Sequence record: PQ478073.1
Length of the DNA stretch: 64,000 nt
Strand: one strand, 5' to 3'
Source: a phage
Shown: positions 19,236 to 57,243 of the stretch, in pieces
Numbering within the stretch: the first letter of the stretch is position 1
Layout of the letters: every line of letters begins with the position of its first letter
The notes under the pieces: generated by a model
Seen by the model: only the letters and a program-made list of their open reading frames with translations
Databases searched by the model: none
What the model was told of the DNA's origin: nothing
Made by a program: the position numbers and the translations under genes

Positions 19236-19263
19236 TAGACAAACCGTAAGAATGTGATATAAT
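19236..19263 (+). promoter_or_regulatory. sigma70-type early promoter with extended -10, driving the ClpA-like gene
   Basis: -35 TAGACA (19236-19241), 16-nt spacer, TGaTATAAT (19255-19263); same GACA-N16-TGnTATAAT layout as at 42208 and 46909. Confidence 0.6.
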
Positions 19264-19303
19264 GTTTATTAATTAGAGTGACGTGAATCACATAGGAGAA
19301 TAC

Positions 19304-21592
19304 ATGAATCTTACTCAATTGTTCAAAAAAAGCGACGAACTGGCAACATCTCTAGGTCATACATTCTTGACTATTGACCACGTAAGTGCCACAGTACTGA
19401 CTATTGATAGCATCAAGAACGTATTTGAAGATATGAACATTGATGCAGACAAACTGCACAACCGCCTGATGAACTATCTTAAAAATACAACAGTTCCACA
19501 TGCACCAAAAAGTGTTAAAGATGAAGACGCGAATCGCACTTCACTTCTAGTGAATCGCGTTGTACATGAGCTTTCTAAAAAATCAGTTATTGAACAACTA
19601 AAAAGTGATGATTTTTCGATTGATGCATATTTTGTTCTATTCGAATGTCTGTCTTTCCCTAACACAGCACTAGAAGCTGCGTTGAAAGAAGAAGGTGTTA
19701 GCTGTACTGAAGCTGCACGTGCATTGCAAAAACACGTTGAGTCACTTGATAAGGGTATCAACTTACAAAGTATTAATGACGAACCGATTGGAGATAAAAA
19801 AGTGGCCCAACAGCAGCAATCATCTAAACAAAAAGGTTTGGAAGACTATACAACGAATCTAACAGCTCTTGCAAAAGAAGGCAAACTAGATCCTATGATT
19901 GGTCGCCAGAAAGAATTGTCTGCATTGATTGAGACTCTTGCTCGCAAAACCAAAAAGAATGCTATTCTTACTGGTGAAGCTGGTGTAGGTAAAACACAAA
20001 TCATCGACGGTCTTGCACAAGCTATTGCTGACGGCAACGTACCTGAACACCTGAAAGACGTTGAAATTCTTTCACTAAATGTTGGTGCATTGACTGCTGG
20101 TACTAAGTATCGTGGTGAGTTTGAAGAACGCATCGACAATTTGCTAAAAGAACTAAAGAAACGTGAAAATACTATTGTTTTCATTGATGAAATTCATATT
20201 ATGGTTGGGGCTGGTTCCGCAAGTAATGGTTCTATGGACATGAGCAATATGCTTAAGCCAGCACTTTCACGTGGTGAGATTCGTGTAATTGGTGCAACAA
20301 CATATGATGAATATCGTAAAAATATCGAGAAAGATAGTGCATTAACTCGTCGTTTTATGAAAATTGATGTAGTTGAGCCGTCAATTGATGAAACTCGTGC
20401 AATTGTTAATGGTTTGAAACCAACTTATGAAAAATTCCATAATGTTGAGTTCACAACTGATGCAATGGATGCTGTAATTTCTCTCAGTGATAAATTCCTG
20501 AAGAATAAGCACTTCCCAGATAAAGCAATTGATCTAATGGACGCTGCTGCTGCAAAAGTTCGTTCACGTGACAACAATAGTAAGCTTATTACTGCCAATT
20601 TGATTCAAGAAGTTGTTGCTGGTATTGCCAATTTGGATATCAACGTGGTTGCATGTACTGAAAGTGATCGTATGCGTAATCTACCAGATGCACTACGCTC
20701 ACGTGTATACGGTCAAGAGGAAGCTATTCAAAAATTAGTTGATAACGTGATGGTAGCTCGTGCAGGTCTGCGTGACAAATCTAGTGTTCAGGGTGCATTT
20801 ATGTTTGTTGGACCATCTGGTACTGGTAAAACAGAAATTACCAAAGCATTAGCAGATGCAACTGGTGCGGAACTGATTCGCTTTGATATGTCAGAATTTT
20901 CTCAAGAACATACTGTTTCTAAACTAATTGGTTCACCTCCAGGTTATGTTGGTCATGATTCTGGTAACGGTTTACTGTTGGATAAAATTGAGCAGTTCCC
21001 TAATGCAGTACTGTTACTTGATGAAATTGAAAAAGCAGATCGTAAAGTACTACTAACCTTCCTACAGGTTTTGGATGAAGGTCGCCTGACTGGTTCACAA
21101 GGTAAAACTGTATATTTTAATAACGTAACTGTTATTATGACTACAAACCTTGGTGCGGCAGATTCAACGAAGCGTAGCATTGGTATGAGCGGTAGTGATA
21201 CTGCACAAGACAAGGCTATTAAAGCATTCTTGCCACCAGAGTTCATTAACCGTATTGATAGTATCGTTACGTTTAAAGACCTAAGCAGTGAAGCTATTGA
21301 CAGCATCATTGATAAGTTCATGGGCAGTTTGAATGAACAAGTCAAAGACCGCAATGTTAAAGTTACGTTGACAAAAGCTGCACGTGAATGGCTTGCGAAA
21401 AATGGGGTAAAAGTTGGCATGGGTGCACGTCCAATGAAACGTACCATTGAACAAAACATTCGTGTACCACTAGCTAAAGAAATGTTGTGTGGTTCACTTG
21501 TGAATGGTGGTAACATTACATTTGATGTTATTGATGGTAAAATCGGTATTAAACCTAAACGTTCCAAAGCTGTAGATAAAGCACTGGCATAA
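19304..21592 (+). CDS. ClpA-like two-ring AAA+ unfoldase (762 aa from ATG 19304)
   Basis: Double Clp-N-like N-terminal region; D1 Walker [10 protein letters not shown]; D2 Walker [10 protein letters not shown] and Walker [10 protein letters not shown]; no long ClpB-type middle coiled coil; IGM tripeptide at 21179-21187 where ClpA carries its ClpP-docking IGL loop. Track start 19283 is GTG; ATG 19304 has an AGGAG SD. Confidence 0.85.
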
Positions 21593-21602
21593 AAAAAGAA
21601 AA

Positions 21603-21627
21603 GGAGAGCAACATGCTCTCCTTTTTT
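21603..21627. terminator. bidirectional intrinsic terminator
   Basis: GGAGAGC-aacat-GCTCTCC hairpin flanked by an A-run (21591-21602) and a T6 run (21622-21627); between convergent genes. Confidence 0.8.
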
Positions 21628-21628
21628 A

Positions 21629-24600
21629 TTATTTAACTAATAATATATTTTTAATATCATTACCACTAACTTGTAGACTATCAGTGTATACTGAAAGATC
21701 TATAGTGTAACTATTTTGTGTGTAACGTTTTAACATATCATAATTACCTAAATTAATTCCATTGAATGAATATGTAGTATTAAGTTTAAAATCATGTTCT
21801 GCACTATACATTACTCCACGGAGTAAATTATTTGCATTTCTAACTTCAACTTTTTCATATCCAATCGATATAATATCATTTATGTTCGCGGCAGAACCGG
21901 ATAAAACATTATTTCTAATACTATAAGGACTTATTGATTTAGGTTGAGAAACATAGGTTGTATTTTCTTCACTAATGGTTGTGATGTTAGTAACCGTACC
22001 ACCAACAACACCGATGTACATACCGTCAACCATTGGATAACCATAAACCCATATACCTTCATTATTTCTAAACGGTTGAATAACACTTGAATCATATTCA
22101 ATAACGTTGATTTCTAAACTATCAGTCATTTTAGTTCTTGCTAATTCACTAAGAACTCCCGCACCAGTAATTGGTAGGTTATAACCGTTGTCGATAGTAA
22201 TTCCATCAACATCAAATATTTCGTTAGAGATTATCCAAACGTCAACGTCATCTGGTGTTATTCCGTCATTGTACTTACCACCATTTAAAGTAGTATCGTA
22301 GAAAACATCATAATTAATTACATCAATTGTGTAATTTCTATTTTGTTCGTACAATTTGATACCATTCTTCACAAATTCTGGGTCAGCAAATGTTCTAACA
22401 CGAACAATGTTCAATGCAAGAGGCTGTACTGGCTCATTTTGTTGTGCAAGAGTGATATTATCATAACGGAGAACTGCACCAGTACTCTCATCAATCAATT
22501 CAATCGTTTCTTTACCTGTATTTCTTACAGTGAATAGGATCGGAGTTGTATTGTTTTTGATGTTAGATACACGCAAGATTGTTTCCCATGTGTGATTTTG
22601 ATATCTCACAAAATCTTCACCATCAGGAGTGAAAATCATCACCTTATCACCATCAGATAGGTCATTGTCAACTATTTCTGCTTCAGTTAAGCTATTAATA
22701 GATCTCACACGATAGAAATATTTTTCATCAAACTTCGATGTTGTTTTATTAATATCATTTTCAATCTTAGCATATGAAGGAATACTAACAATTGCTTCTG
22801 TATGTTTATATGGATTGATAATTGCCATACCTTCAGTTTGATATCTGCTGTTATCACGTAATTGTACAAGAGATACATTGTCAAACCCATATCCATCAAC
22901 TGTAAATCTAATTTGACCAACATCACGCCCAGAAGGGTTTATGTCAGATATATCCACAATATAAGGATCAACTTCATCATCTTTAACTTCCCATTTTATT
23001 GAAGAAGTTTGAGATTCTAATGCTAGGTTATCAAATGCATTCATATCATTGAAGTACTTAGCTTCAGTAATACTATCAAGTATATATTGATAATCTGAAT
23101 ACATTGGGTTATTTTGATCTAGTGGTAAATCATCTAGATTTATTTCAGCTAGTTCAATCATTTCACCATTTGTGATAAAATAATCTTCCATGAAATCATC
23201 AATACTTTGTTCATCAGGTATACTTTGATATACACCGTTAACATTTAAGTAAACATATTTTCGTGGAATCATTGTAATTGCATAGATATCAATTGGGGTT
23301 TTACTAAGAATCTCTTCAGCTTTTTCGTACTTATCAGTAGCGTCTTTGTCGAATAACCCTCTCATACCTGCTAATACGTGAATAGCATCAGTATAGAAAC
23401 GGGTATCACCACCGACTTCATCATAACGATAAACATATACACCATACTCAACTTCAAGTTTAACTTTTACTTCATAGTCTGATGCGTCAGGATTTTTATC
23501 TTTAATTAATGAAATATATTTTTGATACAGTTCACTGCTTATTTCAAAATATCCATAGTTATAATCATTACTAGAAGAAAAGCCTAATGGAAGTCTAGTA
23601 CTAGGATTGTCATTATAAGTAAGTCCACTAAATCCACAACCAACTTCATCGTGAATTTTCTCATCACTTATATCTTTATAAAGTTTCAAACGGTTTGCCA
23701 ATGTGTTATACTGAACATATTGTCTAAGGTCAGTAAACATATCGTTCTGCGTTGATTCTTTATAAACACGCTCCAATGTAGCAGTAAATTCATCAGTTGC
23801 TTCTAAATCTTCCGCATGGTCTTTATACCACTGGTTAACACCATATGCTGTTCCTAATGTTACATCCAATTCTGGATAGTAGATTTGCATTTGATAAGCA
23901 ATAAGAAGATCGAAAGTTTCTTCACTATATTCTGGGAAAGAATATATATAACGTTGTAATTCATAGTTACTAACAGCATCCTTTTCATTGGATTGATATT
24001 TGTTATTAACACTTACTAATTCATTTATGCTTGCTAAATCTGCATTTGGTTTACATTGAATGTTATCGTAATGCATAATAATATCAATTTCTTGGAATCT
24101 TCTATTTGGTGTAATGAAATCACTTGGTAGTGAACCTACCTGTTCCCATTTTTGGGTAATTTCATTAAATTGAGCGTACTCATAATCCCAAATATCTTTT
24201 TCAGTTTTGACCCAAGAACCGTCAACGAAAATATATCCATTAGGATCTAAATCATTACACAGACCTTTTATTAAATCATCATCAGATGTCTTTTGCTCTA
24301 TTTGTGAACGAATTTTAGTTCTATAAGGTTTAACTTCTTCAAAATATTCAACAATTTGATTAATCAAATTATCGTTTGAATAGTTTTGAACTAATGATTG
24401 TTCCAAACCAACAATATAGATATATGATGTTTTAAATACCCAATCCACAACACTTTGTTCAACATGTACATATTTGACCATATCAAAAACAATTTCGCTT
24501 TGATGTAAATCGAAAGAATTTTTGAGTAAAGCTAGTGCTTTACGAACGTTGATTTCACGATTGCTTAGTGAACCATTATCATTATGAACACTATAATCTG

Positions 24601-27600
24601 CGTAAAGCATATCATTGAGTTCAACTGTACTGTTTTCACGACCAATCGCTTTCCAATAAATTGAATCGCGTGATTGTGATTTAATATACAATGTCCAAAT
24701 GTTTTCACTATCGGTAACTCTGATAATATCTCCAACTTGGTAGTTTTTAGTATTAGCATCTTCTAAGCTTGACTCTTGTGTATAAGTCGTGTTACTATCA
24801 TACCCAACATCATACCAATCAGCATATGACCAGTACTGAGTCATGTCCAATGAAGTTCCTAGTGATTCAACATAATCAGATTGTTTAATCATTTTATGTT
24901 GTCCCTCACCTTTGTTCTCTAACGTTATAGTAACAACACTACCCGCGTTTGCTGGACTATTCATTAACTGAATATATCCATTTTCGTCGAAGTGAATAAA
25001 ATAAACAGCACTAGAAGTTAATGGATTTGGTAGATATCCACTAGTACTTAAAATAACAGCGTCATTTTCTTTAAATTTATCACTTTCAACTGCAATAACT
25101 AATTCATTATTGTAAGACAATACACGGAAAGAAACTTCATTCGGGTTAACTTCAGTGGTTTTAACATTAAACACATCTTCCATAACAACACTATTAGTGG
25201 TTATGTTTTGTGACCTATAATAATTATTAGCACTTTCTACAAAGTTTCTACGAGCTTCTATAACATTTTGGAACCAAGTTTTGTTTGAACCTAAACCGTT
25301 ATCAACATCTGGATATAATAAATTAATCACAGAACCTGATTCAGTTGTTTCTTGACCAATTAGTGAGTTCCACATTGAATCCCAAATTAGTGGGTTAAAG
25401 TTATAGCTGTCACCTTCTTTACATAGTTGATACTGGTCATGTTTAACAACTTCAGTACTATCCATGTAATAAGAAACAGTTAAAATACTGGTATCATCAT
25501 TCACTTTAAATTGCATATTACTAAGAATAAACGAGTTTTCATTGATTGGAGCGAACCAAGGAATGTTTAGCTGTGTTGGATCTTTAATAATACGAGCAAT
25601 GTCAGTACATGATTTTGTTCTGGTATGTAGTGGTGGTACATAAATTGTATCACGTACCCAGAAATAGTATTTTGTCACATAACTATCAGTTGAACTATCA
25701 TATTCCAAAAATGTACTATAATTATCTTCAAGTGCAGTTCCACTTGGTAGATACATAGTATTATTTTTGTTTTTCTTAGCAACATCTTTACAGTATTTGT
25801 CCCAGTTATATGGCTCAACTGGTGAACAAACCCACTCTAACACATCAATTGTACTATGTGGTAATAAACGACCCCAGTTGTAACGTTTGTATTCATTGGT
25901 TGCATCAATGTCAACATTACCGTCTGCGTCATAAATTGCACGAGTATAATCCAAATAAAATGCAGTGCTAGTGTTCCACCATACTTGACCAACTTTATCA
26001 GCACCCCAAGCCTGGATTAACTCTCCATTACTATTATACTGTGCAGGATCAACTGGTGAAGTATATGTTACGTTTTGCATAGCCGCACCTGGAATAACAC
26101 CATTAATTGGGTCATAAACGTTTAGATATAGCTCAGTAATGTTAGTACGTTCATCATATGTCGTTGGACGATCAAATAAAGTACTTTGTGGTGCTTTAAA
26201 ACTATATTTCTTGTCAATGTAAGCTTGACGTTCATCAGTACTGGCAAAACGTGATACATAACGATACAAACGTGGACGTGTATCTGGATCAGTAAATTCA
26301 ATATCAATAGAAGTGTCAAATGGAACTACCATAACTTTAGGATCAGAACCAGCAGTATAATATTGACTTTCTACTGTTAAAGTATCTGGCATAAAGTTAG
26401 TTTCATCAACAAAATAATAATAATCACCATCTTCAAGTGGTACATTATCAGTTAAAGTTACTTTACAAAATTGTTCAGCATACACATCGGTATTTTCAAT
26501 AGGTGTTATAGAAACCATTTGAACATTAGTATCAACCAATTCAAAAATGTTCCACAAACCATTACCGTCTTTAAACATCCACACAGATTCAGGATTTTCA
26601 CCTTTACCATTAGTATAAGTTATGCGGTCATTATATGCAGTACTGAAATCTTTTGTTGTGTACGATACTTCATCCAATGTTACTGGACCAATATCTGGAA
26701 GTTGGATATTTTCACTTCTTCCACTACGCATTGGGAATGAGAACTTACCATTTGGACGTGTAATCCAACGAGGATCTTTACCCTGCTCACCGAAGTATAC
26801 AATATGATTACCATTACCATTTGAAGTTGCATTTACATCAAAAGAAACCATTTGAGGTTGTTGTTTAAATTGGTCATTGATTAGTTTAAATTGAAGGTTT
26901 TTCTTACCATCAATATTACCATATGTACCAATTTTAAATGCCCATTCTTGTAATGCTTTATATTCATCAGTGTCATATGATTTAGAAACACGAAGGACAC
27001 GTTCTAAAACTTGGTTAGTACCTTTATCGTGAATGAATCCTTTATAGAAATCAACACGACTAACATCACTACTAATCATACGCTGTAGATAATCACGAGA
27101 TTGATAACCAATCAAATGGTTTGACAACTCTTGTAATTGTACATCACTTACTGGAGTTTCACTATCATAATAATGTTGGAAATCCGACACTAATTTTTCA
27201 AATGATGGTAGTGTTCCAGCTTCCAAGATAATAAATCCAGGAGCTTGTAGGCGACCAGTCCATGAACCAGTAATATATCCATACATTTTAATTAGTTCTT
27301 GAATAGAACCATATGTTGGCTGATAAATGTAATCACCAAAAATAGTTTTATCATCAAAAATAACAGCATGTTCATATGAACACAAACTTAAACGAATCAA
27401 TGCAATGCGTTTATTAGATTCTAAAGTTCTAACAGTGAAGATATTTCCAATACGAGAAGTTTCAATTTCATATTGGCGAATACCTTGGTTATTATCATCA
27501 AGTAATGACCATACACCACCATTATTTTGCGTAATAGATTGTACTGAACCAAAGTCTGCCCCAAATTTAGCGTTTGCAGCACTTGGGGTACAAGAAATAA

Positions 27601-31600: not shown

Positions 31601-31636
31601 TTTTGGACTCCATATAATTCGTTCATTCATTTGATT

Positions 31637-36157: not shown

Positions 36158-36165
36158 TATTTATA
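36158..36165 (-). promoter_or_regulatory. candidate late promoter (TATAAATA) for lysozyme gene
   Basis: Exact minus-strand TATAAATA 17 nt upstream of ATG 36141. Confidence 0.4.
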
Positions 36166-42161: not shown

Positions 42162-42207
42162 CTTTTTGATTCTCCATAATAAGGGAACATTTGATGTATT
42201 TATACGT

Positions 42208-42235
42208 GGGACAAACTGCTTTTTGGTGCTATAAT
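42208..42235 (+). promoter_or_regulatory. sigma70-type promoter with extended -10, driving the gp55-like gene
   Basis: -35 GGGACA (42208-42213), 16-nt spacer, TGcTATAAT (42227-42235). Confidence 0.5.
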
Positions 42236-42292
42236 AACATTGATGGTACAAGGATTGTACCTATTGGATTTAAACATGGAGAGTAAAATACA

Positions 42293-43132
42293 ATGACAAA
42301 TAGACCAAAGCGTAAAAAGTATCTCAATAATGCTGATTTACTTCGTGAAATACAAAAAAGTAAAATTTCATATTGCTGGTTATTAGACAAATCATATAGT
42401 ATGTATGATTATATTGTTTTTCATGAGTCAGAAATTACTGCTGAGTTACTAGAAAAAGCTAAGGCAGCACGAATTAAACGACTGAACAATGAAATGCTTG
42501 ATAGTATTCGTGAAAAGGAAAATATGAGTGCTAAAAAAGCTAAAGAATATGCAGATGAACACAATTTAGTTATCACTGACGTTCCAATTGATGAAGTTGT
42601 TATTCGTGTTATTACAGATGAACATATTCCACCAGATACTAGAGTTAACTTTGAACCATTCAAGCATTATATTGTAGATAATGAAGGTATTCTCTATGAA
42701 GTTTGTCGTTCTCACTGGAAAGGCGACCTTGAAACTGGTGAATTCAGTACTGTTCATGGTAAAATTACAAATGAACTTGGGAAGATGTTCATTAAACTTG
42801 CAGAGGAAATCTCACACAAATCTAATTACAGAAACTATACATACTTAGATGAAATGATGGGTGATGCAAGAATACAATTAGTTAAAAACGCACTTCTCTT
42901 TAAAGAGAGCATTCTTTATAAAAAAGATAAACCAGCAGTTCAGCTAAATCCTTTCTCTTACTATACATCATTCGTAAACAATAGTTTTCGTTCTATATTG
43001 AATAGTGAGAAAAATGTTCGAAATATACGTGATGATTTACTTGAAATGCATGGCTTTACGCCATCACATACACGTCAAATTGAAATTGAATTGAACATGA
43101 TTGAAAGGAAAAATGAAGATGGCTCTGTTTGA
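42293..43132 (+). CDS. 55: late-transcription sigma factor, gp55-like (279 aa)
   Basis: N-terminus KRKKYLNNADLLREIQKSK matches T4 gp55 (KPKYNYVNNKELLQAI); lies directly upstream of gp47/gp46 as in T4; ~90 aa longer than T4 gp55. Confidence 0.65.
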   Translation: MTNRPKRKKYLNNADLLREIQKSKISYCWLLDKSYSMYDYIVFHESEITAELLEKAKAARIKRLNNEMLDSIREKENMSAKKAKEYADEHNLVITDVPIDEVVIRVITDEHIPPDTRVNFEPFKHYIVDNEGILYEVCRSHWKGDLETGEFSTVHGKITNELGKMFIKLAEEISHKSNYRNYTYLDEMMGDARIQLVKNALLFKESILYKKDKPAVQLNPFSYYTSFVNNSFRSILNSEKNVRNIRDDLLEMHGFTPSHTRQIEIELNMIERKNEDGSV

Positions 43133-46306: not shown

Positions 46307-46317
46307 TTAAAGATAAA

Positions 46318-46340
46318 GGGAGCCTTAGCTCCCTTTTTTT
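46318..46340. terminator. bidirectional intrinsic terminator
   Basis: GGGAGC-ctta-GCTCCC hairpin with T7 run (46334-46340) on plus and an A-rich run upstream; overlaps the stop of the convergent minus-strand gene. Confidence 0.75.
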
Positions 46341-46816
46341 ATATCAACCATATTTAATTTACCGTCCTTAATCAGCTTTCTAGCTTGCTTTACACGAGCA
46401 GTAGTGTTACTACCAGGGACAACTCCTAACCCTTCCAGAATCGCGTTTTGCTGTGTTGCTGGAAGCCTTTTAAACTTATTAACATCCACAGTTAGTGCAG
46501 TGTGATGTATAACTTGTTCATCGTCAGGAATGCTGTTATTACGCTCTAAGTAATCAGCAAGATTTCTGAGTACCTCATATAATGGTTTATCAGTTAAGTG
46601 CTTCATATATCGATTGAAGCTGTTTTGTACCTTTCCTTCCCAAGCATTGACTTCATTTTGAAGAACTTGTCTACAATGTTGGTTACCATAGTGGTAGTGA
46701 TCCAGTACTGGTTTAGTTATTGGTTCTTTAATTATAGGATCTATTCCATTTTGTTTCTTTAGCAATTCGTTTCGATAGTTTGCAGCATCCTTACTATCTT
46801 TTAATCTTTTTTTCAT
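46325..46816 (-). CDS. Endo VII-like (T4 gp49 family) protein lacking the Cys4 zinc cluster (163 aa)
   Basis: Aligns by eye to T4 Endo VII: QNG; LDHYHYGN vs LDHDHELNG; NAWEG vs NAAEG; FNR; L.NL..YL. The CxxC...CxxC zinc-site cysteines are absent. Confidence 0.5.
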   Translation of the reverse strand: MKKRLKDSKDAANYRNELLKKQNGIDPIIKEPITKPVLDHYHYGNQHCRQVLQNEVNAWEGKVQNSFNRYMKHLTDKPLYEVLRNLADYLERNNSIPDDEQVIHHTALTVDVNKFKRLPATQQNAILEGLGVVPGSNTTARVKQARKLIKDGKLNMVDIKKGS

Positions 46817-46846
46817 AATTCCTCACCAAACTATTTGTTATCAAAA

Positions 46847-46854
46847 TATTTATA
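46847..46854 (-). promoter_or_regulatory. candidate late promoter (TATAAATA) for Endo VII-like gene
   Basis: Exact minus-strand TATAAATA ~30 nt upstream of ATG 46816. Confidence 0.4.
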
Positions 46855-46908
46855 GATTAGTTATTTGCAATATTTTAAGTACTTAATGAATATTTTTATA
46901 AAAATAGT

Positions 46909-46936
46909 GAGACAACTTTAAAGTTTGTGCTATAAT
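46909..46936 (+). promoter_or_regulatory. orphan sigma70-type promoter with extended -10, facing an ORF-free region
   Basis: -35 GAGACA (46909-46914), 16-nt spacer, TGcTATAAT (46928-46936); no ORF of 60 aa or more downstream on the plus strand for ~700 bp. Confidence 0.5.
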
Positions 46937-46942
46937 GTTTGT

Positions 46943-47396
46943 TGTAGTAATGACAATCCTGTTGAATGCAGAAATGCATATAAATTAGAACCTGATCCTA
47001 TCGAAAATGTAGATGGCAGATGAGCAGTTCAACAGTGCGATGAGCAAAAGAAACCCGTTAGATGTGGGCATAGTTTGAACCCCTCACGGCAATGCGGCTC
47101 AATAAAGAACTCCGATAAGCATACAGAGAGTTCCTAGATAGACATATAAGGATCGCACCTTACCAGATTTGCTAAGGGAGTTTATTAAGTGATTTTAATA
47201 AACAGCCTGAAGTTTGATTGTATAGACTTTCAGGTGAGTGTCAGGATGATTAAGACTGACGACCGTTGCACATGACTGCGATAGAGAGAAACAGAGCAAC
47301 CCGCTTTCGTTCTTAATATATTTTTAAGAAATTCGCAATACAATAAATGCTGAAACCATCAGCGTCAAGAAATAGAGACTTCATTGTCTCTTTTTT
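46943..47396 (+). ncRNA. candidate ~450-nt structured non-coding RNA (unknown class)
   Basis: Bounded by the promoter at 46909-46936 and a hairpin+T-run at 47374-47396; only ORFs of 21 codons or fewer; locally higher GC than surroundings; several local stems (e.g. CCTGAA/TTCAGG 47206-47234, GTCAG/CTGAC 47240-47260). No tRNA T-loop/acceptor pattern found. Confidence 0.35.
47374..47396 (+). terminator. intrinsic terminator (plus strand) ending the candidate ncRNA
   Basis: AGAGAC-ttcatt-GTCTCT hairpin followed by TTTTTTATT. Confidence 0.5.
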
Positions 47397-47404
47397 ATTG
47401 TCTT

Positions 47405-47424
47405 CATTCCCCTGCGGGGGGATG
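47405..47424. other. GC-rich hairpin (CATTCCCC-tgcg-GGGGGATG) not followed by a T-run on either strand
   Basis: 8-bp stem with G6 run, conspicuous in an AT-rich genome; possible RNA processing/stability element or protein-binding site. Confidence 0.3.
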
Positions 47425-47490
47425 AAAATGTCCTCAACAAATCCCGTCAAGTATTAAATCTTTTAAAGTTCTTTATAATTAATTTAATTA

Positions 47491-47555
47491 AATGAATATG
47501 AGTTACGTAGTAACGAATATTCTTCAGCTAACGAATGAAATGAGTTAGATGAATC
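47491..47555. repeat. iteron-like direct repeats in AT-rich spacer
   Basis: AA(C/T)GAAT at 47491, 47512 and 47530 (spacings 21 and 18 bp) with a partial (A)TGAAT at 47549; TAACGAAT twice (47511-47518, 47529-47536); ATGAGTTA twice (47498-47505, 47540-47547). Confidence 0.35.
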
Positions 47556-47612
47556 CAATAATATTAAAATTAATCCTTTCATAATTCAATTCAAATAATT
47601 CTGTAGTTTAAA

Positions 47613-47641
47613 ACCAAAAAAAACCAGCAACAATGTGCTGG
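47613..47641 (-). terminator. intrinsic terminator (minus strand) after the 69-aa gene
   Basis: CCAGCA-caatgt-GCTGG hairpin (plus 47623-47640); on the minus strand it is followed by TTTTTTTTGG (complement of 47613-47622). Confidence 0.75.
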
Positions 47642-47652
47642 CTATATGAAAA

Positions 47653-47862
47653 TTAGTGCTTCTCGTTTTGTTTTTTAATTTTTTTATTAAAAGACTTAAC
47701 TAATAAGTCTCTATCTATTAATGGCATATTAAGGAGTGTTCCATAGTCAATGTTATCCATATATACAGAACATTCCATTAGTGCATTTTTGATTTCTGAC
47801 TTATTCAGTTCTATCTCCTTCAGTACTTCTTGTATTTCTTCAGGAGATGACTGGAGAAGCAT
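47653..47862 (-). CDS. hypothetical small protein (69 aa)
   Basis: Start overlaps the upstream stop (TAATG at 47860-47864), implying translational coupling; product unknown. Confidence 0.45.
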   Translation of the reverse strand: MLLQSSPEEIQEVLKEIELNKSEIKNALMECSVYMDNIDYGTLLNMPLIDRDLLVKSFNKKIKKQNEKH

Positions 47863-48698: not shown

Positions 48699-48789
48699 TT
48701 TATTAAATCTCCATGTAATAAATGTGTTTTAGTATTTATAAGACTAAAAAAGATTAAATTAAACTAATTTTTATATTCTCTATAGTTTC

Positions 48790-48796
48790 ATAAATA
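48790..48796 (+). promoter_or_regulatory. candidate late promoter (ATAAATA) for head-module first gene
   Basis: CATAAATAT ~33 nt upstream of ATG 48829; a TATAAT hexamer also present at 48801-48806. Confidence 0.3.
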
Positions 48797-48828
48797 TTTC
48801 TATAATACATCTATTAAAAGGGAATGTT

Positions 48829-51033: not shown

Positions 51034-51044
51034 GGACGAAAATA

Positions 51045-52784
51045 ATGAGTTGGAAACGACATATGACAGTGGGAAGGTCTAAACTATCGACCATCCCAAA
51101 TCAGTCCAGTAATAGCAATAAATCAACAGGAACGAAAACAAATTTCGCTTCCTATCTTCCTGTTGTATATAATGGATTGGCAAACCGTACTGAGCGTTAT
51201 AGTCAGTATGAGCAAATGGACCAAGATCCTGAAATTAGAACTGCATTGAATATAATTGCTGACTTTTGTACCCAAAGTACTGAAGATTTTGGTTTACCAT
51301 ATAAAATCAAATATAAAGATGACATTGGTGATACTGAAGTAACGACTATTGAAGATCGTTTAGATGCATGGACTGAACAAAATGATTTTAAAACACGAAT
51401 GTATGAAATTGTGCGTGGTCTTCTGAAATATGGTGATCAATTTTTCATTCGAGATCCAGAAACATTCGATTGGTATTGGGTAAGCCCCAAAAATGTTGAG
51501 CAAGTATTTGTTAACGAAGCCACTGGTAAAACACCAGTAATTTATTATATACGTGACGTATCATTAAATTTGAAAGATAAAGTTTTTAGTAACCTTCAAG
51601 TAGGATTTGATAAAACCGCTTATCCAGGAGCTATTCCGACAACAATGGGTGGCGGTGGTTCAGTAGCTGCGGGTGGTGCATCTGGTTTTACAAGTCAAGG
51701 AAATACTGCTGACCCATTCAGTACTAACGGTCAATTAGACGTTATTCCTGTTGGTGCAGAACACGTAATTCATCTAACGCTAAATACAGGACAAGATGGG
51801 GTATGGCCTTTTGGTACTAGTATACTTGAGGACGTATTTAAAGTCTATAAGCAAAAAGAACTTCTGGAAGATAGTATCATAATTTATCGTGTACAACGTG
51901 CACCTGAGCGTCGTGTATTTAAAATTGATGTTGGTGATATGCAAGCACACCAAGCGATGGCTTATGTTGAAAGATTTAAAAATGAAATCCACCAGCGTAG
52001 AATACCTTCAAACAAAGGTGGAAGTACTTCATTAATGGATGCAGCATATAATCCATTAAGCATTTTAGAAGACTACTTTTTCCCACAAACTTCTGAAGGT
52101 CGTGGTTCAGATGTTCAAACATTACCAGGCGGTGATAACTTAGGACAAATTGATGACTTACGTTATTTTAATAATAAATTGATTCGTGGTCTTCAAATAC
52201 CAGCTTCTTATCTACCACAAGGTCCAGATGATGGTGGTGTTTCATTATTTGGTGATGGTGCTACACAAGCTATGGCAAGTGAATTGCGATTCAATAATCA
52301 ATGTATGCGTTATCAACGTTTAGTTGCAAAACATTTTGATGCTGAATTCAAAAGATTTATGGTTAAAAATGGATATAACATTAGTACTTCATCTTTTGAA
52401 GTTATTATGAATCCACCTATTAACTTAGCTTCTTATCGTAAAGCTGAACTAGATGCTAAACTAATTAATACATATCTTCCTCTTAATGACTTGCCTTATA
52501 TGGCGAAACAAACAATTCTTGAAAAAATGGGCTTTTCTAAAGCTGATATTGTTAAGAATGAACAAATGTGGTTACAAGAGAATCCACAAGATGGTTCCCA
52601 ACCTTCTGGTGGTGAAGAAGATTCCGCTGGATTACAGTCTGTTGGTATTGATGCTCCAAATGATCCTGGAATGGATCTTGGTATTGATGGAGAAGGTAAT
52701 TTGGAAAGTGCTGATGCCGAATACCAAGAGCAACAGAGTGGAAGTGGTGGTTTCAACCCTAATAATTTAGGCAATTCTTTTTAA
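51045..52784 (+). CDS. 20: portal protein, gp20-like (579 aa)
   Basis: [21 protein letters not shown] vs T4 gp20 [41 protein letters not shown] vs [20 protein letters not shown]. Confidence 0.9.
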   Translation: [579 protein letters not shown]

Positions 52785-52857
52785 ACATAAATAACAGTGT
52801 ATAAGAATGAGGGTTTATTTTTACCCTCATTTATAATGCATATTTCAAGGAGATCAA

Positions 52858-53085
52858 ATGTTAAAGGACATCTTTGAATCTAGCAGTGATTCAATGTACG
52901 ACCCTGAAGATGATCAGAACGTATATAAAATTACTGATTCCAGAAAACCGAAACTAACATTACAAGTATTAAACAACTTAAGAAAGTACCGTGAATTTAA
53001 AGCACATGAAGAACAACGCCGCAAAAATGTGGTTGCAGTTGTTTATGCCGCTGCACCAACTGGTGACGGTTCTGGGTTAATGTAA
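52858..53085 (+). CDS. small prohead core protein candidate (75 aa)
   Basis: Position between portal and protease matches T4 gp67/gp68-type small core proteins; AAGGAG SD; no motif evidence. Confidence 0.4.
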   Translation: MLKDIFESSSDSMYDPEDDQNVYKITDSRKPKLTLQVLNNLRKYREFKAHEEQRRKNVVAVVYAAAPTGDGSGLM

Positions 53086-53137
53086 ATCAAAAATCGCACT
53101 TTTTAAAGCTTTTAAAAAAGGCGATTTTATTCAGTAC

Positions 53138-53153
53138 TAAATAATATCATACT
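53138..53153 (+). promoter_or_regulatory. candidate late promoter block (C)TAAATAATATCATACT
   Basis: 16-mer TAAATAATATCATACT identical to the block upstream of the major capsid gene (55902-55917); sits after an AU-rich hairpin (53091-53127) and 34 nt before ATG 53187. Confidence 0.45.
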
Positions 53154-53186
53154 TTATACGAATGTAATATATCTATGGAGGATATA

Positions 53187-54035
53187 ATGGCGAATTTAAA
53201 ACTACTACAAGAAGCAATTGCGGCGTTTGCAAATGGCGAACAAGATATTGCTGATAAAAAAATGCGTAAGTATTTCGTTGAGCAAGCTCAAGAAATTAAC
53301 AAACAACTAGAAGAAAGCATGGAAGATGAAGACGACGATGAAGATTGTGAAGTCGAAGTTAAAGTCAAAGATGAAGAAAAGCTTGACGAAGATTTTGATG
53401 TACAACCAGACGAAGGTCTAAATGCTGAAATCGAATACACCCTTGGTGAAGAAGATGAAAGTGCAGAAGAAGAAGTTGAATTCTCTGCTGATGCAGATGG
53501 TGACGGTGAAGACGATGTTGACGTTGAAGTGAAAGCTGATGCTGATGTTCCTTCCGAAGACCAATGGGAATCAATCCAAGATGCTTTCCGTGGCCTACAA
53601 CAAATGTTTGATGAAATCGGTGACGGTGAAGTTGATCTAGATTCTGAAGAAGAAGTAGAAGATAGCGAAGAAGAAGTTGGCGTTGACGGTGACGACGAAT
53701 TTGCTGATGTTGAATTCGGTGATGAAAAATTCGGTGAATCCTTCAAACTAGAAAAAGTTGCTCCAGTTGATAAGAAAGAAAAAGCTGGCACTCATTCCAA
53801 ATCTCCAGTAGCACCAGAAGCTAAATCTCCAGTAGCAGGAGCAGAGCCAGTTAAATTCGCTAAGAAAACTGACCAAGCACCATTACTAGACCTAGATGAT
53901 AAATCTGTTCTACCAAAAGATAGTCTAGATCTTGGTAAAAATGCTCGCGGTGAAATGAAAGATGTTAAAGCACCAAAAACTACTGCATCTAATTCTAAAT
54001 CACCACTAAGCAAAGCACAACCTAAACTAAAATAA
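53187..54035 (+). CDS. highly acidic prohead core/scaffold protein (282 aa from ATG 53187)
   Basis: Extreme D/E content (EDEDDDEDCEVEVKVKDEEKLDEDFD...); GGAGGATATAATG start context mirrors the capsid gene (GGAGATATATAATG). Track start is 53175. Confidence 0.6.
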   Translation: MANLKLLQEAIAAFANGEQDIADKKMRKYFVEQAQEINKQLEESMEDEDDDEDCEVEVKVKDEEKLDEDFDVQPDEGLNAEIEYTLGEEDESAEEEVEFSADADGDGEDDVDVEVKADADVPSEDQWESIQDAFRGLQQMFDEIGDGEVDLDSEEEVEDSEEEVGVDGDDEFADVEFGDEKFGESFKLEKVAPVDKKEKAGTHSKSPVAPEAKSPVAGAEPVKFAKKTDQAPLLDLDDKSVLPKDSLDLGKNARGEMKDVKAPKTTASNSKSPLSKAQPKLK

Positions 54036-54038
54036 ATA
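54032..54038 (+). promoter_or_regulatory. candidate late promoter (ATAAATATCTG) for protease gene
   Basis: ATAAATATCTG, shared 11-mer with the 54692 site, overlapping the upstream stop codon. Confidence 0.3.
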
Positions 54039-54055
54039 TCTGAAAGGAGATCATT

Positions 54056-54679
54056 ATGAGTAGTATGATTCGTGAATGGTCTTCATTCAATGATTCTAAA
54101 GTTGTTTTGGAACATCGTGATAATGGATTTGGTGGGCGTGACTGCTATCTTCGTGGTATTGCTATTCAAGCCGACCAACGAAATTTGAACGAGAGAATTT
54201 ACCCTTTATCTGAAATTACAAGGGCAGTAAATAACATGAACCAGCGTTTAGCTAAAGGTGAAAGCATTCTTGTTGAATGTGACCATCCAGAAACACTAAC
54301 TATTAACCTAGACCGAGTAGCAGCAATGATTACTAAGGTTTGGATGGAAGGTGCTAATGGTATGGCAGAAATCAAACTACTTGATACTGCACATGGTCAA
54401 AATATCCGTAAAATGCTAGAGGCTGGTGTAAAACTTGGTGTAAGTTCTCGCGGTTCCGGTAACGTTGATTATAATGGAATAGTTTCTGATTTTGAAATTA
54501 TCACTATTGATATTGTTGCTCAACCTAGTGCTCCAGAAGCATACCCAACAGCGGTATTTGAATCTCTGATGAGTAAGTACGGATCACCTTGTAATAGTTC
54601 TAAAAAAATCACTGAATCTAAAAAAGTAAATAATTTAGATTCTGAAATATACGATTTTTTCAAGAAATTAAAAGGTTAA
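54056..54679 (+). CDS. 21: prohead core protease, gp21-like (207 aa)
   Basis: LVECDHPE and VSSRGSG resemble T4 gp21 VELGHP and FSMRGLVS; position between core proteins and scaffold. Confidence 0.7.
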   Translation: MSSMIREWSSFNDSKVVLEHRDNGFGGRDCYLRGIAIQADQRNLNERIYPLSEITRAVNNMNQRLAKGESILVECDHPETLTINLDRVAAMITKVWMEGANGMAEIKLLDTAHGQNIRKMLEAGVKLGVSSRGSGNVDYNGIVSDFEIITIDIVAQPSAPEAYPTAVFESLMSKYGSPCNSSKKITESKKVNNLDSEIYDFFKKLKG

Positions 54680-54690
54680 CATTTTAAAAA

Positions 54691-54721
54691 TATAAATATC
54701 TGTATGTTGAAGTACAGATAT
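54691..54721 (+). promoter_or_regulatory. candidate late promoter TATAAATA overlapped by a 9-bp palindrome
   Basis: TATAAATA 54691-54698; perfect inverted repeat ATATCTGTA-N8-TACAGATAT (54696-54704, 54713-54721) spanning the -10 element and the expected start site. Confidence 0.4.
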
Positions 54722-54745
54722 TTCAGTACTTAAAGGAGAGAACGA

Positions 54746-55861
54746 ATGTCTAAATTAGAAAAGCTTCTAAAAGAATCATCTCTTTCTGATGAGGCAAAAC
54801 AGCTAATTCAGGAAGCATGGAATGAAGAAAAGAATACACTAGCCGCAGAGATGCGTGAAGAAATGAAAGGCCGTTATCAGCAAGATTTGGCTGAACTAAC
54901 CGAAGGTTTGAACACTATGGTTACTCAAGTCATTGCTGAAGAAATGGGTGCTGTATATGAAGAGAAAAAACGTCTCGTTGAAGATCGTGTAACTCTACGT
55001 AAAACACTAAGCAATTTCTCTGCGTTTTCAAACTCTGTTTTGGCTGAAGAAGTTAAACAAATGCGTAAAGAACGTAAGCATCTTCATGAATGCATGGGTA
55101 AATTCGTTAATTTTTCTAACGGTATCCTAGCAGAAGAGCTAAAAGAATTCCACACTGAAAAACGTCAACTAGTTGAAACTCGCGTTAAACTACTTGCTGA
55201 AGGTTCACGTCAAATTGCTGAAGCTCGTAATAACTTCATCAAACGTACATCTGAAAGTGCTGCTAAATATATTGCAGAAACCACTCAGAAGAATCTATAT
55301 GCGTTGAAACAAGATCTAGTGGAAGCAAAACAAAATATGTTTGGTCGTAAAATCTTTGAAGCATTTGCTCAAGAGTTTAATGTCAAACAATTTAATGAAA
55401 ACTCATTGCTACGTTCCCTAACTGAATCAATTAAATCTAAAGAAGATGAAATTGCTCAAGTTAAGCAAGAACTACATGAAACTGCTAATGCCGTTAAAGC
55501 TGCTAAAACCAAACTACGTATTATGGAAGATGCACAAGCACGTAATGCGATTATGTCTGAACTAGTAAAACCACTAACTGCACAGCAAAAACAAATTATG
55601 GAATCCCTTCTAGCTACTTCACCTACTGAAAAGCTTAAAGAAGATTTCAGCAAGTACCATAAGTCAGTACTTAACGGTACTAAAGTAAATGAATCTGCTA
55701 CCACTCGTCAAGCAGTTCAGTCTTCCGCTAAGAAAACTCTTGCAGAAGGTAAAGTAATCACTGGCAACCGTCAGGCTATTGTTGAAAGCGAAGAAATGAC
55801 CGCTGACGATATGGCATTCCTAAAAGAACTCGATGTTCTTTCAGGTATCAATAAAAAATAA
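54746..55861 (+). CDS. prohead scaffold protein, gp22-like (371 aa)
   Basis: A/E/K/L-rich heptad-like coiled-coil composition; immediately upstream of the major capsid gene. Confidence 0.6.
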   Translation: MSKLEKLLKESSLSDEAKQLIQEAWNEEKNTLAAEMREEMKGRYQQDLAELTEGLNTMVTQVIAEEMGAVYEEKKRLVEDRVTLRKTLSNFSAFSNSVLAEEVKQMRKERKHLHECMGKFVNFSNGILAEELKEFHTEKRQLVETRVKLLAEGSRQIAEARNNFIKRTSESAAKYIAETTQKNLYALKQDLVEAKQNMFGRKIFEAFAQEFNVKQFNENSLLRSLTESIKSKEDEIAQVKQELHETANAVKAAKTKLRIMEDAQARNAIMSELVKPLTAQQKQIMESLLATSPTEKLKEDFSKYHKSVLNGTKVNESATTRQAVQSSAKKTLAEGKVITGNRQAIVESEEMTADDMAFLKELDVLSGINKK

Positions 55862-55899
55862 ACATTTTAAAGCATTTTAATAATCAAATTTTTCAGTTC

Positions 55900-55917
55900 T
55901 ATAAATAATATCATACT
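55900..55917 (+). promoter_or_regulatory. late promoter TATAAATA plus conserved 16-mer, for major capsid gene
   Basis: Exact TATAAATA (55900-55907) 45 nt upstream of ATG 55953; the same TAAATAATATCATACT block occurs at 53138-53153. Confidence 0.55.
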
Positions 55918-55952
55918 GAAAAACGAATATAACATCTTTAAGGAGATATATA

Positions 55953-57128
55953 ATGTCACAACTACTAAATGAATCCAAATGGGTAGCAGTAAAAGAGAAA
56001 CTAGTTGAAGGTCTACAGGGTACTCGTAAGTCTGTAATGGAAACTGTTCTTGATAACCATCGTAAAGTTATGCTAACTGAATCCGCAACTTCTGGTGCAA
56101 CTACCGCTGGTAACATCGCTACTCTAAACAAAGTGATTCTACCAATTATGCGTCGTGTAATGCCAACCGTTATTGCTAACGAAATCATCGGTGTTCAACC
56201 AATGACTGGTCCAGTTGGTCAGATCCACACCCTACGTGTGCAATATGCTGATAACGCACCTGGTGTTATCGCTGGTGAAGAAATGCTTTCTCCATACAAA
56301 ATCGCTAAATCCTACTCTGGTGATCTAAATGCGGATAATAGCAACCCACAAGCTGCTCCTACTAGCCAACTAGAAGGTACTATGGGTCGTCGCGTTAACA
56401 TCCGTATTCTACGTGAAACTGTTGAAGCGAAATCTCGTCGTCTATCTGCACGTTGGACTGTTGAATCTGCACAAGATGCTCAATCCCAACATGGTGTTGA
56501 CGTTGAAGCAGAACTAATGGCTGCAATCGCTCAAGAAGTTACCGTAGAAATCGACCAAGAGCTACTAAGCCGTCTACGTGCACTACCTGGTGCTGCTGCT
56601 GTAACTTATGACCAATCTAAAGTTACTGGTGTTGCAACCTTCGTTGGTGATGAGCACGCTGCTCTAGCAACTCTAATTAACCGTCAAGCAAACGAAGTTG
56701 CTCGTCGTACTAAGCGTGGTGCTGCAAACTGGGCTGTTGTTTCCCCAACTGCACTAACCATTCTACAATCTGCTACTACTTCTAGCTTTGCACGTACCAC
56801 TGAAGGTACTTTCGAAGCACCAACTAACGTTAAGTTTGTAGGTACTCTAAACAGCACTATGCGTATTTTTGTTGATACTTATGCAAGTGATGCAGAAGAT
56901 ATTCTAATTGGTTATAAAGGTAATGCAGAAACTGATGCTGGTGTGTTCTATTGCCCATACATCCCACTAATGGCTTCCGGTACTGTAATGGACCCTAACA
57001 CTGGGGAATTGGTCACAACTTTCTTAACCAGGTATGGTTATGTTCAGTTGACCGATAGCACCAGTTCACTAGGTAACGCTGCGGACTACTACAGCAAAAT
57101 CGCTATCAAAAACGTTACTTTCATGTAA
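55953..57128 (+). CDS. 23: major capsid protein, gp23-like (391 aa)
   Basis: RRVMPTVIANEIIGVQPMTGPVGQIHTLRVQYA vs T4 gp23 RRAIPNLIAFDICGVQPMNSPTGQVFALRAVYG; VEAKSRRLSARWTVESAQD vs IEAKSRQLKAAYSIELAQD; YKGNAETDAGVFYCPYIPL vs YKGPNEMDAGIYYAPYVAL. About 130 aa shorter than T4 gp23. Confidence 0.92.
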   Translation: MSQLLNESKWVAVKEKLVEGLQGTRKSVMETVLDNHRKVMLTESATSGATTAGNIATLNKVILPIMRRVMPTVIANEIIGVQPMTGPVGQIHTLRVQYADNAPGVIAGEEMLSPYKIAKSYSGDLNADNSNPQAAPTSQLEGTMGRRVNIRILRETVEAKSRRLSARWTVESAQDAQSQHGVDVEAELMAAIAQEVTVEIDQELLSRLRALPGAAAVTYDQSKVTGVATFVGDEHAALATLINRQANEVARRTKRGAANWAVVSPTALTILQSATTSSFARTTEGTFEAPTNVKFVGTLNSTMRIFVDTYASDAEDILIGYKGNAETDAGVFYCPYIPLMASGTVMDPNTGELVTTFLTRYGYVQLTDSTSSLGNAADYYSKIAIKNVTFM

Positions 57129-57174
57129 TTGTAATAGATTTAAAAGATTTAATCAAAAAAAAATAAAAACAATA

Positions 57175-57204
57175 GGGACTCTTCGGAGTCCCTTTTCTTT
57201 TTAT
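57175..57204 (+). terminator. strong intrinsic terminator after capsid gene (UUCG tetraloop)
   Basis: GGGACTC-ttcg-GAGTCCC followed by TTTTCTTTTTATT. Confidence 0.85.
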
Positions 57205-57214
57205 TAAAAAACCC

Positions 57215-57243
57215 TTGACACAATGTTCTGGAATGTATATAAT
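57215..57243 (+). promoter_or_regulatory. consensus sigma70 promoter (TTGACA-17-TATAAT)
   Basis: -35 TTGACA 57215-57220, 17-nt spacer, -10 TATAAT 57238-57243; ATG 57276 lies ~26 nt downstream of the predicted start site. Confidence 0.7.

Follow-up and report, generated by a model that had tools for sequence, protein, structure and literature searches.

The window analysed here, a 64,000-nt stretch of phage DNA given as one strand, 5' to 3' (record PQ478073.1; position 1 is its first letter), contains four sites, named P1, P2, P3 and P5, that very probably are real promoters of one conserved class. The class is predicted from sequence as a unit with a fixed length of 29 nt: a TG(A/G)GAC(A)AA box at about -35 to -27, eleven unspecified nucleotides (N11) and an extended -10 element, (T)RTGnTATAAT. 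P1 stands upstream of a gene for a ClpA-like ATPase, P2 upstream of the gene for a gp55-like late sigma factor, P3 ahead of a unit without an open reading frame (ORF) and P5 ahead of the DNA polymerase gene. We propose that the class forms the middle tier of a three-step transcription cascade and that a phage-encoded factor is needed to read its upstream box; the class, the cascade and the need for such a factor have, taken jointly, a probability of roughly 0.6 in our estimate. The ORF-less unit behind P3 probably represents a real, transcribed and hitherto undescribed family of structured RNAs.

A 10-kb probe from the window has 99-99.9% identity to the Escherichia phages JP4, phAPEC6, PBECO4, 121Q and G17, Asteriusvirus members of the Rak2-like jumbo myoviruses with genomes of about 350 kb, and 60-80% identity to Klebsiella, Cronobacter, Pectobacterium, Erwinia, Serratia and Xanthomonas relatives. 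Over the window, the JP4 annotation lists virion genes, the ClpA-like ATPase, the gp55-like 'sigma factor for late transcription', SbcCD, endonuclease VII, head genes and the beginning of the DNA polymerase operon. The JP4 genome was assembled from its annotated pieces for genome-wide scans. In the JP4 record, a segment of about 20 kb is directly repeated (~123.7-143.8 kb and 143.8-163.9 kb), with the same series of genes in both copies. This is probably a terminal repeat assembled internally, and motif counts are therefore doubled in that region.

Class promoter sites in the window and in the JP4 genome

The predicted class promoters in the window, with their scores, are as follows.

19235..19263, + strand: P1; GTAGACAAA box and TGTGATATAAT extended -10 (TRTGn-TATAAT); 25.4 bits
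42207..42235, + strand: P2; TGGGACAAA box and GGTGCTATAAT extended -10; 28.7 bits
46908..46936, + strand: P3; TGAGACAAC box and TGTGCTATAAT extended -10; 34.7 bits
61270..61298, + strand: P5; TGAGACAACACGTAAAGACGTGATACAAT (TGAGACAAC...CGTGATACAAT); 28.7 bits

A first-pass annotation of the window had reported a GACA-type -35, a 16-nt spacer and a TGnTATAAT -10 at 19236, 42208 and 46909, and all three are where it placed them. The upstream hexamers are TAGACA at P1 (19236-41), GGGACA at P2 (42208-13) and GAGACA at P3 (46909-14); each is followed by a 16-nt spacer and then by TGA-TATAAT ending at 19263, TGC-TATAAT ending at 42235 and TGC-TATAAT ending at 46936, respectively. P1-P3 thus all have the hallmark of a sigma-70 extended -10, a TG one base before a TATAAT-like hexamer. 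The 'N16' of the first-pass annotation holds as a hexamer-to-hexamer spacer that includes TGn; read literally, GACA-N16-TGnTATAAT has no match, and the correct pattern is GACA-N13-TGnTATAAT. This pattern matches the window exactly three times, at P1, P2 and P3, against 0.01 expected, and none of 100 shuffles reaches three. Since TGnTATAAT by itself is not enriched in the window (12 vs 8.1 expected), the promoter signal lies in the combination and its register. Generic consensus promoter scans of the window found promoter-like sites no commoner than in shuffles, and such scans therefore cannot validate single sites.

P5, the fourth class site of the window, was found by allowing one mismatch. 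The gap in which it lies is followed by a small ORF (61363-61665) and the DNA polymerase gene. Members of the class have a TGrrAC-type box at N14, rarely N15, from TGnTATAAT; P2, P3 and P5 match TGRRAC-N14-TGnTA(T/C)AAT with at most one mismatch and P1 with two, the box of P1 being degenerate (GTAGAC). The ClpA-like AAA+ gene (19304-21592, with ClpA/B domains) has its ATG at 19304, 41 nt downstream of P1, and the gp55-like late sigma gene (42293-43132) lies downstream of P2. A hairpin (61304-61327) follows P5, and the small ORF behind it encodes 100 aa.

For the genome-wide search, all extended -10 elements of JP4 were listed, and a position weight matrix (PWM) was seeded on the 18 strictest sites, iterated and applied with a cut-off of at least 14 bits. 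About 30 of the extended -10 elements have TG(A/G)GAC in one fixed register. The PWM, whose information is concentrated in TGrGACA and G-TG-n-TATAAT, has 38 matches, every one of them on the + strand; shuffles give 0-3 for the two strands together (~0.7). About 36 unique sites are left once the duplicated terminal repeat is discounted. P3 has the highest score in the whole JP4 genome. The strand of all class sites is that of the non-structural genes. According to the JP4 annotation, the genes behind them are primase/helicase, exonucleases, Dda, topoisomerase II, the clamp-loader operon, tRNA-Ser/Arg, Nudix, the deoxynucleoside monophosphate kinase region, the DprA/ThyA operon, the ClpA-like and gp55-like genes and DNA polymerase, and two tandem class sites precede SSB/UvsX/UvsY. 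Every JP4 copy of the structured RNA family also stands behind a class promoter. The first-pass count of three shared sites is thus right for the exact pattern, but as a class there are four sites in the window and about 36 per genome. Similarly, the 'weak GACA -35' does contain GACA, but the conserved box is longer, TG(A/G)GAC(A)AA of about 9 nt, and is both specific and lineage-variable. Co-regulation of P1, P2 and P3 and the timing of their activity are what we infer from these sequence features.

Earlier description and conservation across relatives

Buttimer et al. 2017 (PMC5259590) derived three promoter types for phage CBB with MEME. The first comprises 18 RpoD-like promoters with UP elements in the presumed early region. 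The second, called 'divergent RpoD-like' or 'Promoter 1', has 18 copies with TGAAACG for a -35 and a classic -10; most stand ahead of DNA-synthesis genes and one ahead of the gp55-like gene. The third consists of ATAAATA late promoters. In Table S6 of the same paper, Promoter 1 reads TG(A/G)AAC(G)-N13-RTGnTATAAT, and the type was also seen in Cronobacter phage GAP32 (PMC5259590; Abbasifar et al. 2014, as cited in the CBB paper).

Comparison with the window places the Table S6 sequences, such as Porf_244 TGGAACGTTTTTTAAAATTGTGGTATAAT, in the same 29-nt register as the window sites. Porf_244 is the orthologue of P2, upstream of the gp55-like gene, and Porf_235 is the orthologue of P1, with the CBB ClpA-like gene beginning directly downstream. 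The CBB and GAP32 sites share with those of the window the 29-nt architecture, the position of the box 14 nt upstream of RTGnTATAAT, the association with DNA-synthesis genes and the gp55-like and ClpA-like positions; in CBB, as here, the class coexists with canonical RpoD-type and ATAAATA late promoters. The box itself differs, being TG(A/G)AAC(G) in CBB and GAP32 and TG(A/G)GAC(A)AA in this phage, and the CBB consensus TGAAACG is absent from the window sites. We read this as a lineage variant and not as exclusion from the class, because the difference follows lineage and 7t3-like phages have the version found in the window. The window class is therefore the Asteriusvirus version of a published class, which had been predicted with MEME only. 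It is new for the genus of 121Q and PBECO4. The CBB work did not notice the link with the RNA family, because its search covered only the 100 nt upstream of ORFs.

All orthologous promoters that were checked are conserved in position, with box and extended -10 in register and with spacers and flanks that have drifted. The P2 orthologues at the gp55-like genes of 7t3, CBB and GAP32 have diverged spacers, and SE_PL and CBB retain the P1 promoter ahead of the ClpA-like gene. P3 is kept upstream of the RNA in 7t3, CBB, GAP32, K64-1/RaK2, Serratia phage BF, a Yersinia phage and uncultivated viral genomes. Across the compared relatives the extended -10 is unchanged and the upstream box is lineage-specific: TG(A/G)GAC(A)AA in Asteriusvirus and 7t3-like phages, TG(A/G)AAC(G) in Mimasvirus and in Yersinia, Serratia and Erwinia phages, and TGAACG or TTGACA in Alcyoneusvirus. 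The first-pass proposal that the promoter of the ORF-less unit is real, and belongs to one set with those of the gp55-like and ClpA-like genes, gains support from the genome-wide rank of P3, from the positional conservation of P1, P2 and P3 in diverged genera, from the published CBB orthologues of P1 and P2 and from the class promoter that accompanies nearly every full-length copy of the RNA.

The structured RNA behind P3

The RNA copy behind P3, called copy A, and its predicted parts are located as follows.

46943..47451, + strand: structured noncoding RNA copy A; predicted start at about 46943, conserved core 46991-47451
46967-78, + strand: leader hairpin
Loop 47214-26 pairing with 47337-46, + strand: pseudoknot
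47261-47304, + strand: most conserved block
47374-47400, + strand: terminator-like hairpin and T-run
47403-26, + strand: GC hairpin
47494..47522, + strand: 'module 2', a hairpin with an ACGTAGT loop motif that recurs after most RNA copies

Behind four JP4 class promoters, no credible ORF occurs for at least 550 nt. The sequences there are paralogues with a core of about 480 nt, located at 334.6 kb (P3), 76328-76780, 201443-201923 and 255767-256323, with 70-85% identity over 450-520 nt and E-values of 1e-48 to 1e-70. The ORF-less stretch behind a class-like site in the JP4 terminal repeat (123 kb) proved unrelated to the RNA. A distant blastn search located the element 291 times, spread over 71 phage records. 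Copy numbers are four per genome in Asteriusvirus, at least two in K64-1-like phages, and five each in EJP2, 7t3, GAP32, CBB, Serratia phage BF, a Yersinia phage, Erwinia phages and Xanthomonas phage XbC2. Copy A is syntenic in CBB, GAP32 and 7t3, and the K64-1 match is syntenic with copy C. A pattern scan of IMG/VR added 29 loci, all on contigs of jumbo size or fragments of them. In nearly every full copy, whether from isolates, metagenomic contigs or bacterial islands, there is a class promoter at 40-95 nt upstream of the conserved start CCUGAUCC.

Covariation argues strongly for a conserved fold. RNAalifold on eight sequences gave 84 pairs, 50 of them with double compensatory changes; 95% of cells were paired, against 42-46% with slid partners. 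In a larger alignment of 23 non-redundant sequences, 94% of cells were paired against 38-47% in slid controls, and 49 pairs covaried (259 covarying cells) against 10-21 pairs in slid controls, with 0 of 500 shuffles reaching this level. These slid-partner controls are somewhat favourable to the fold, since the structures were derived from the same alignments. The pseudoknot, of 7 bp, is 99% paired in the larger alignment, with covariation at five of the seven pairs. For the stem that flanks its loop, the same alignment gives only 49% pairing, because MAFFT misaligns this variable stem; the smaller alignment supports it. The single sequence of copy A folds at z = -4.3. Conserved G-U pairs establish that the RNA strand is the strand of P3.

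The copies contain no conserved ORF: their longest ATG-initiated ORFs (26-89 aa) change strand and frame among copies. At gathering thresholds, Rfam 15, which includes GOLLD, ROOL, RNase P, transfer-messenger RNA (tmRNA) and 6S, has no match in the window, and a search of 46900-47520 at E-values up to 10 gave noise only (E > 0.5). ARAGORN found no tRNA or tmRNA, and Rfam has nothing for the bacterial copies described below. Two candidate relatives were rejected. The resemblance to RNase P RNA noticed by eye (ACGACC..GCA, AGAGAG.AAAC and ACAGA..ACCCG.CUU) is accompanied by no scoring RNase P model. The noncoding RNAs 1-4 known from RNA sequencing (RNA-seq) of phage PA5oct gave a best nhmmer E-value of 0.12, at one 3' hairpin, and lack the hallmark blocks; being undetectably related, they provide no usable transcript evidence for the RNA. 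Literature searches found no earlier description of the RNA or of Asteriusvirus promoters. The RNA appears to be large and pseudoknotted, with four or five diverged paralogues in every Rak2-like jumbo phage examined (at least two in K64-1-like phages).

In many genomes, module 2 consists of GAATTGAGTT, a hairpin with an ACGnAGTG loop and then AACGAAAATTCTTTGACATTCGAAGAATGGCAAAT. Its recurrence suggests that the true 3' end may lie beyond 47451 and that the element may be about 600 nt long. In 'C-type' copies, found at JP4 201377-201410 and further loci, a GC hairpin and a T-run lie between class promoter and core; they could be a leader terminator or attenuator, or a 5' stabiliser.

RNA copies beside bacterial mobile-element genes

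The same RNA pattern matches three bacterial records, with full-length homology at E-values of 1e-73 to 1e-80.

Extracted stretch 3666-4149, - strand: RNA copy in the complete chromosome of Serratia fonticola GTA-SR07
Extracted stretch 5404-5932, + strand: RNA copy in Serratia sp. 2723, adjoining a large serine recombinase
Extracted stretch 6456-7055, + strand: RNA copy in an Enterobacteriaceae metagenome-assembled genome, adjoining a CI-like repressor

Neighbours of the S. fonticola copy are a large serine recombinase gene and two genes of ParB/RepB-like type, at a site with duplicated rof and tilS. Judged by these neighbours, the bacterial copies are at the edge of integrative mobile elements. 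Each is preceded by a promoter of the Mimasvirus type, TGAAAC...T(G/C)nTATACT. The pairing of a phage-type box with a phage-type RNA on such an island would suit an element that senses or exploits jumbo-phage infection, although this is speculation.

The proposed cascade and the factor reading the box

The class is distinct, in the same genome, from a canonical TTGACA class found in small-ORF regions and from the T4-type late motif TATAAATA found at virion genes. We propose that it represents the middle tier of an early to middle to late cascade in which the late sigma factor would itself be under a middle promoter. The -10 half would be readable by a sigma-70-type region 2/3, the box would be read by a phage-encoded specificity factor, and P3 would make its RNA at the time of DNA replication.

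T4 provides the closest precedent. Its middle promoters combine a MotA box, (a/t)(a/t)TGCTT(t/c)A at -30, with a sigma-70 -10 and depend on sigma appropriation by AsiA and MotA; they also fire the primer transcripts of the origins oriF and oriG. As in T4, the -35 is replaced by a phage box whose distance from the -10, of sigma-70 type and often extended, is fixed; the genes served are those of replication and recombination together with gene 55, and the tier would lie between sigma-70 early promoters and gp55 late promoters (TATAAATA). The class box is nevertheless unrelated to the MotA box, which is found in none of the boxes TGGGACAAA, TGAGACAAC and GTAGACAAA, and an RpoD-like sigma factor is encoded here, whereas T4 has none. 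The T4-type late arrangement, TATAAATA about 10 nt before the start with no -35, is absent from P1-P5.

Our preferred, though tentative, candidate for the factor that reads the box is this RpoD-like sigma, JP4_CDS0143 (321 aa; extracted stretch 25264-26229), which has Pfam regions 2, 3 and 4 and aligns to residues 373-578 of sigma-70. Early expression is probable, since canonical TTGACA promoters stand immediately ahead of its gene, which is in a small-ORF region. The recognition helix of its region 4.2 differs from that of sigma-70 and tracks the box type across lineages: it reads R-[ST]-S-[IL]-H-R-x-Y in three lineages with a TGGGAC box and K-A-T-L-S-R-R-Y in GAP32, which has a TGGAAC box. 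The protein evolves very fast: E. coli phages with 97% identity in RNA copy A share 57-60% in this sigma, and its identity to other genera is 35-44%. It also has a 7-residue insertion in the helix-turn-helix of region 4.2.

Several observations weigh against the proposed cascade with its phage factor. The phage sigma carries the changes W433S, W434S, Q437M, T440Y, H455Y and E458V at sigma-70 residues that read -12/-11 and the TG. Its region 2.4 varies between lineages while the -10 is invariant, and the correlation of helix with box rests on 3-4 lineages. A tblastn search of JP4 with T4 AsiA and MotA gave a best E-value of 0.86, a weak test that distant homologues would escape. The bacterial islands retain the box without an obvious phage sigma, and at the P1 position Klebsiella phage phiKp_21 has a plain TTGACA-N15-TGATATAAT. 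Host RNA polymerase alone may suffice, because the -10 conforms fully to the extended -10 of sigma-70 and, with a 16-nt spacer, GACA supplies 4 of the 6 bases of the -35 consensus. Finally, a literature search found no 5'-end, RNA-seq or time-course data for any Asteriusvirus, and class membership is accordingly based on sequence only.

Of the other readers considered, T4-style appropriation is the stronger, but we regard it as rather unlikely. Here sigma-70 would read the -10, an anti-sigma factor would remodel its region 4, a MotA-like activator would bind TG(A/G)GAC, and the phage sigma would serve other promoters. The invariance of the -10 as a sigma-70 consensus, when region 2.4 of the phage sigma varies, favours such a mechanism, and a fixed box replacing the -35 ahead of replication genes and the late sigma follows the logic of T4 middle promoters. 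The box is, however, unlike the MotA box; the tblastn search, a weak test, yielded no AsiA or MotA homologue in JP4; the hallmark RpoD-like sigma would be left without a promoter class; and helix 4.2 of that sigma correlates with box type.

Less likely again is host sigma-70 acting alone from the start of infection, with no phage factor involved and the box no more than a lineage-specific habit at the -35. (T)RTGnTATAAT is the extended -10 consensus of E. coli sigma-70, and the downstream half of the class matches it exactly, including the T and R positions upstream of the TG. GACA also aligns with TTGACA at a 16-nt spacer, the Klebsiella-phage ClpA promoter is TTGACA with TGATATAAT, bacterial chromosomes have the same promoter type ahead of the RNA, and the phage sigma lacks the conserved residues with which sigma-70 reads the -10. 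Host extended -10 promoters, on the other hand, have no conserved 9-nt box at -35 to -27 and form no phage-lineage regulon. A separate and abundant TTGACA class is kept for other genes, the conservation of about 9 nt includes positions outside the -35 hexamer, and the class goes with genes of DNA metabolism and with the late sigma. The box moreover differs among phage lineages whose closely related Enterobacterales hosts would be expected to have near-identical sigma-70.

Chance similarity of AT-rich intergenic regions without functional promoters would fit the missing enrichment of TGnTATAAT alone and the generic scans, but it is effectively refuted by the statistics (3 vs 0.01 expected in the window; 38 vs ~0.7 in JP4, on one strand only), by positional conservation across genera and by the independent publication of the class.

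Possible roles of the RNA and significance of the promoter class

By analogy, the default reading of the RNA is a trans-acting ornate RNA like GOLLD or ROOL. Like these, it has several hundred nucleotides, many covarying helices and a pseudoknot, and occurs in phages and mobile elements with no fixed neighbouring protein gene; unlike them, it has 4-5 diverged paralogues per genome, and it matches neither the sequence nor the structure of their Rfam models. Genes stand directly behind some copies, for example one for a DNA methyltransferase and, as we read its ORF start, one of ADP-ribosylglycohydrolase-like type. Since no gene on the same strand follows copy A, a purely cis-regulatory role is unlikely.

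A structured primer or origin RNA, in the manner of T4 oriF/oriG or ColE1 RNA II, is a considerably less probable reading. It is attractive because T4 origins use middle promoters and the RNA copies are dispersed and co-oriented, because a G-run hairpin and an AT-rich tract follow the core, and because satellites could borrow such an element. The P3 RNA would start at a middle-type promoter, as T4 origin transcripts do, and it occurs at several dispersed sites; in contrast to these and to ColE1 RNA II, it is a primer by analogy only. Cumulative GC skew, used as an origin test, tracks gene orientation only and lends no support to an origin. For satellites, carrying a primer or origin RNA of this kind could be a way of being replicated or induced by an infecting jumbo phage.

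The promoter grammar amounts to a sequence-level map of the early, middle and late programme for a group of 350-kb phages, one that would place the late sigma under a middle promoter and mobile endonuclease cassettes under host-type promoters. It raises the question of whether the RpoD-like sigma reads a lineage-specific box or host sigma-70 is re-targeted as in T4. The promoter class itself is of modest interest; the lasting value of the grammar is that it singles out an apparently undescribed pseudoknotted RNA family. Large structured RNAs of unknown function are, to our knowledge, rare. The one flagged by the class promoter is multi-copy, ranges from E. coli to Xanthomonas jumbo phages and bacterial mobile elements and is not in Rfam. 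Its tie to a defined regulatory tier of cultivable coliphages (121Q, PBECO4 and phAPEC6) would make it unusually tractable.

Predicted late and canonical promoters

The T4-type late motif TATAAATA is 7-fold depleted in JP4 (15 vs ~100 expected). In the window it occurs six times, each time between genes, closely ahead of a virion gene and in the correct orientation.

36158..36165, - strand: upstream of the baseplate hub/tail lysozyme gene
42197..42204, - strand: leftward baseplate/virion operon, back-to-back with P2
46847..46854, - strand: endonuclease VII gene (46325-46816, - strand), divergent from P3
48733-40, - strand: late motif
54691-98, + strand: late motif
55900-07, + strand: major head gene

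This pattern fits a functional T4-type late promoter that is avoided elsewhere in the sequence.

Perfect TTGACA-N16-18-TATAAT promoters occur twice in the window against 0.07 expected.

19004..19033, + strand: canonical promoter TTGACA-18-TATAAT, within a minus-strand virion gene (17700-19205) and about 270 nt upstream of P1
57215-43, + strand: P4, TTGACA-17-TATAAT

The first-pass annotation had assigned a full consensus host promoter to a zinc-ribbon cassette at 57215, and it is there, with TTGACA at 57215-20, a 17-nt spacer and TATAAT at 57238-43. It is not the only one, given the second perfect site at 19004-19033. The latter is conserved in JP4 (position 305912), and is possibly an early promoter in tandem with P1 for the ClpA-like gene.

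Across JP4, TTGAC(A/T)-N16-18-TAnnnT has 93 matches against 5-10 in shuffles. The canonical promoters concentrate at 50-100 and 120-165 kb among short ORFs, and also occur upstream of the RpoD-like sigma operon. Many early-type promoters (e.g. 132439, 133015 and 136409) have TTGACA-N9-AGTACTG-TATAAT, and a hairpin (TTGACTTCGGTCAGCC...TGCTATAAT) overlaps with several others. In the same two regions, the palindrome CAGTACTG is very common.

The P4 cassette and the leader of the gp55-like mRNA

The cassette behind P4 is set off from the major head gene by a terminator hairpin.

57174-93, + strand: terminator hairpin after the major head gene, followed by P4 (57215-43)
57276..58373, + strand: P4 cassette gene, with a treble-clef zinc finger (DUF4379) and a weak T5orf172 match

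The locus has 83-93% identity where its flanks have about 99%. It is absent from PBECO4 and several others, and in G17, Sharanji and slurp01 the cassette is replaced by another T5orf172/GIY-YIG gene. The P4 gene, in this hypervariable slot, has the appearance of a free-standing, mobile homing-endonuclease cassette equipped with a terminator and a host-type promoter of its own.

The 5' untranslated region of the gp55-like mRNA, downstream of P2, contains a further conserved structure.

42245..42261, + strand: hairpin GGTACAAGGATTGTACC, with a GGA-containing loop and a covarying stem

The stem covaries in CBB, GAP32 and 7t3 (GGTACA/TGTACC, TAAAAC/GTTTTA and GGGAC/GTCTC), and the loop keeps A(A/C)GGAT(Y); the orthologous hairpins lie at about 1062-1080 of the extracted stretch in CBB and about 1813-1829 of that in 7t3. 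The GGA loop resembles that of a CsrA-type GGA hairpin, and the structure may be a translational operator for the late sigma factor.

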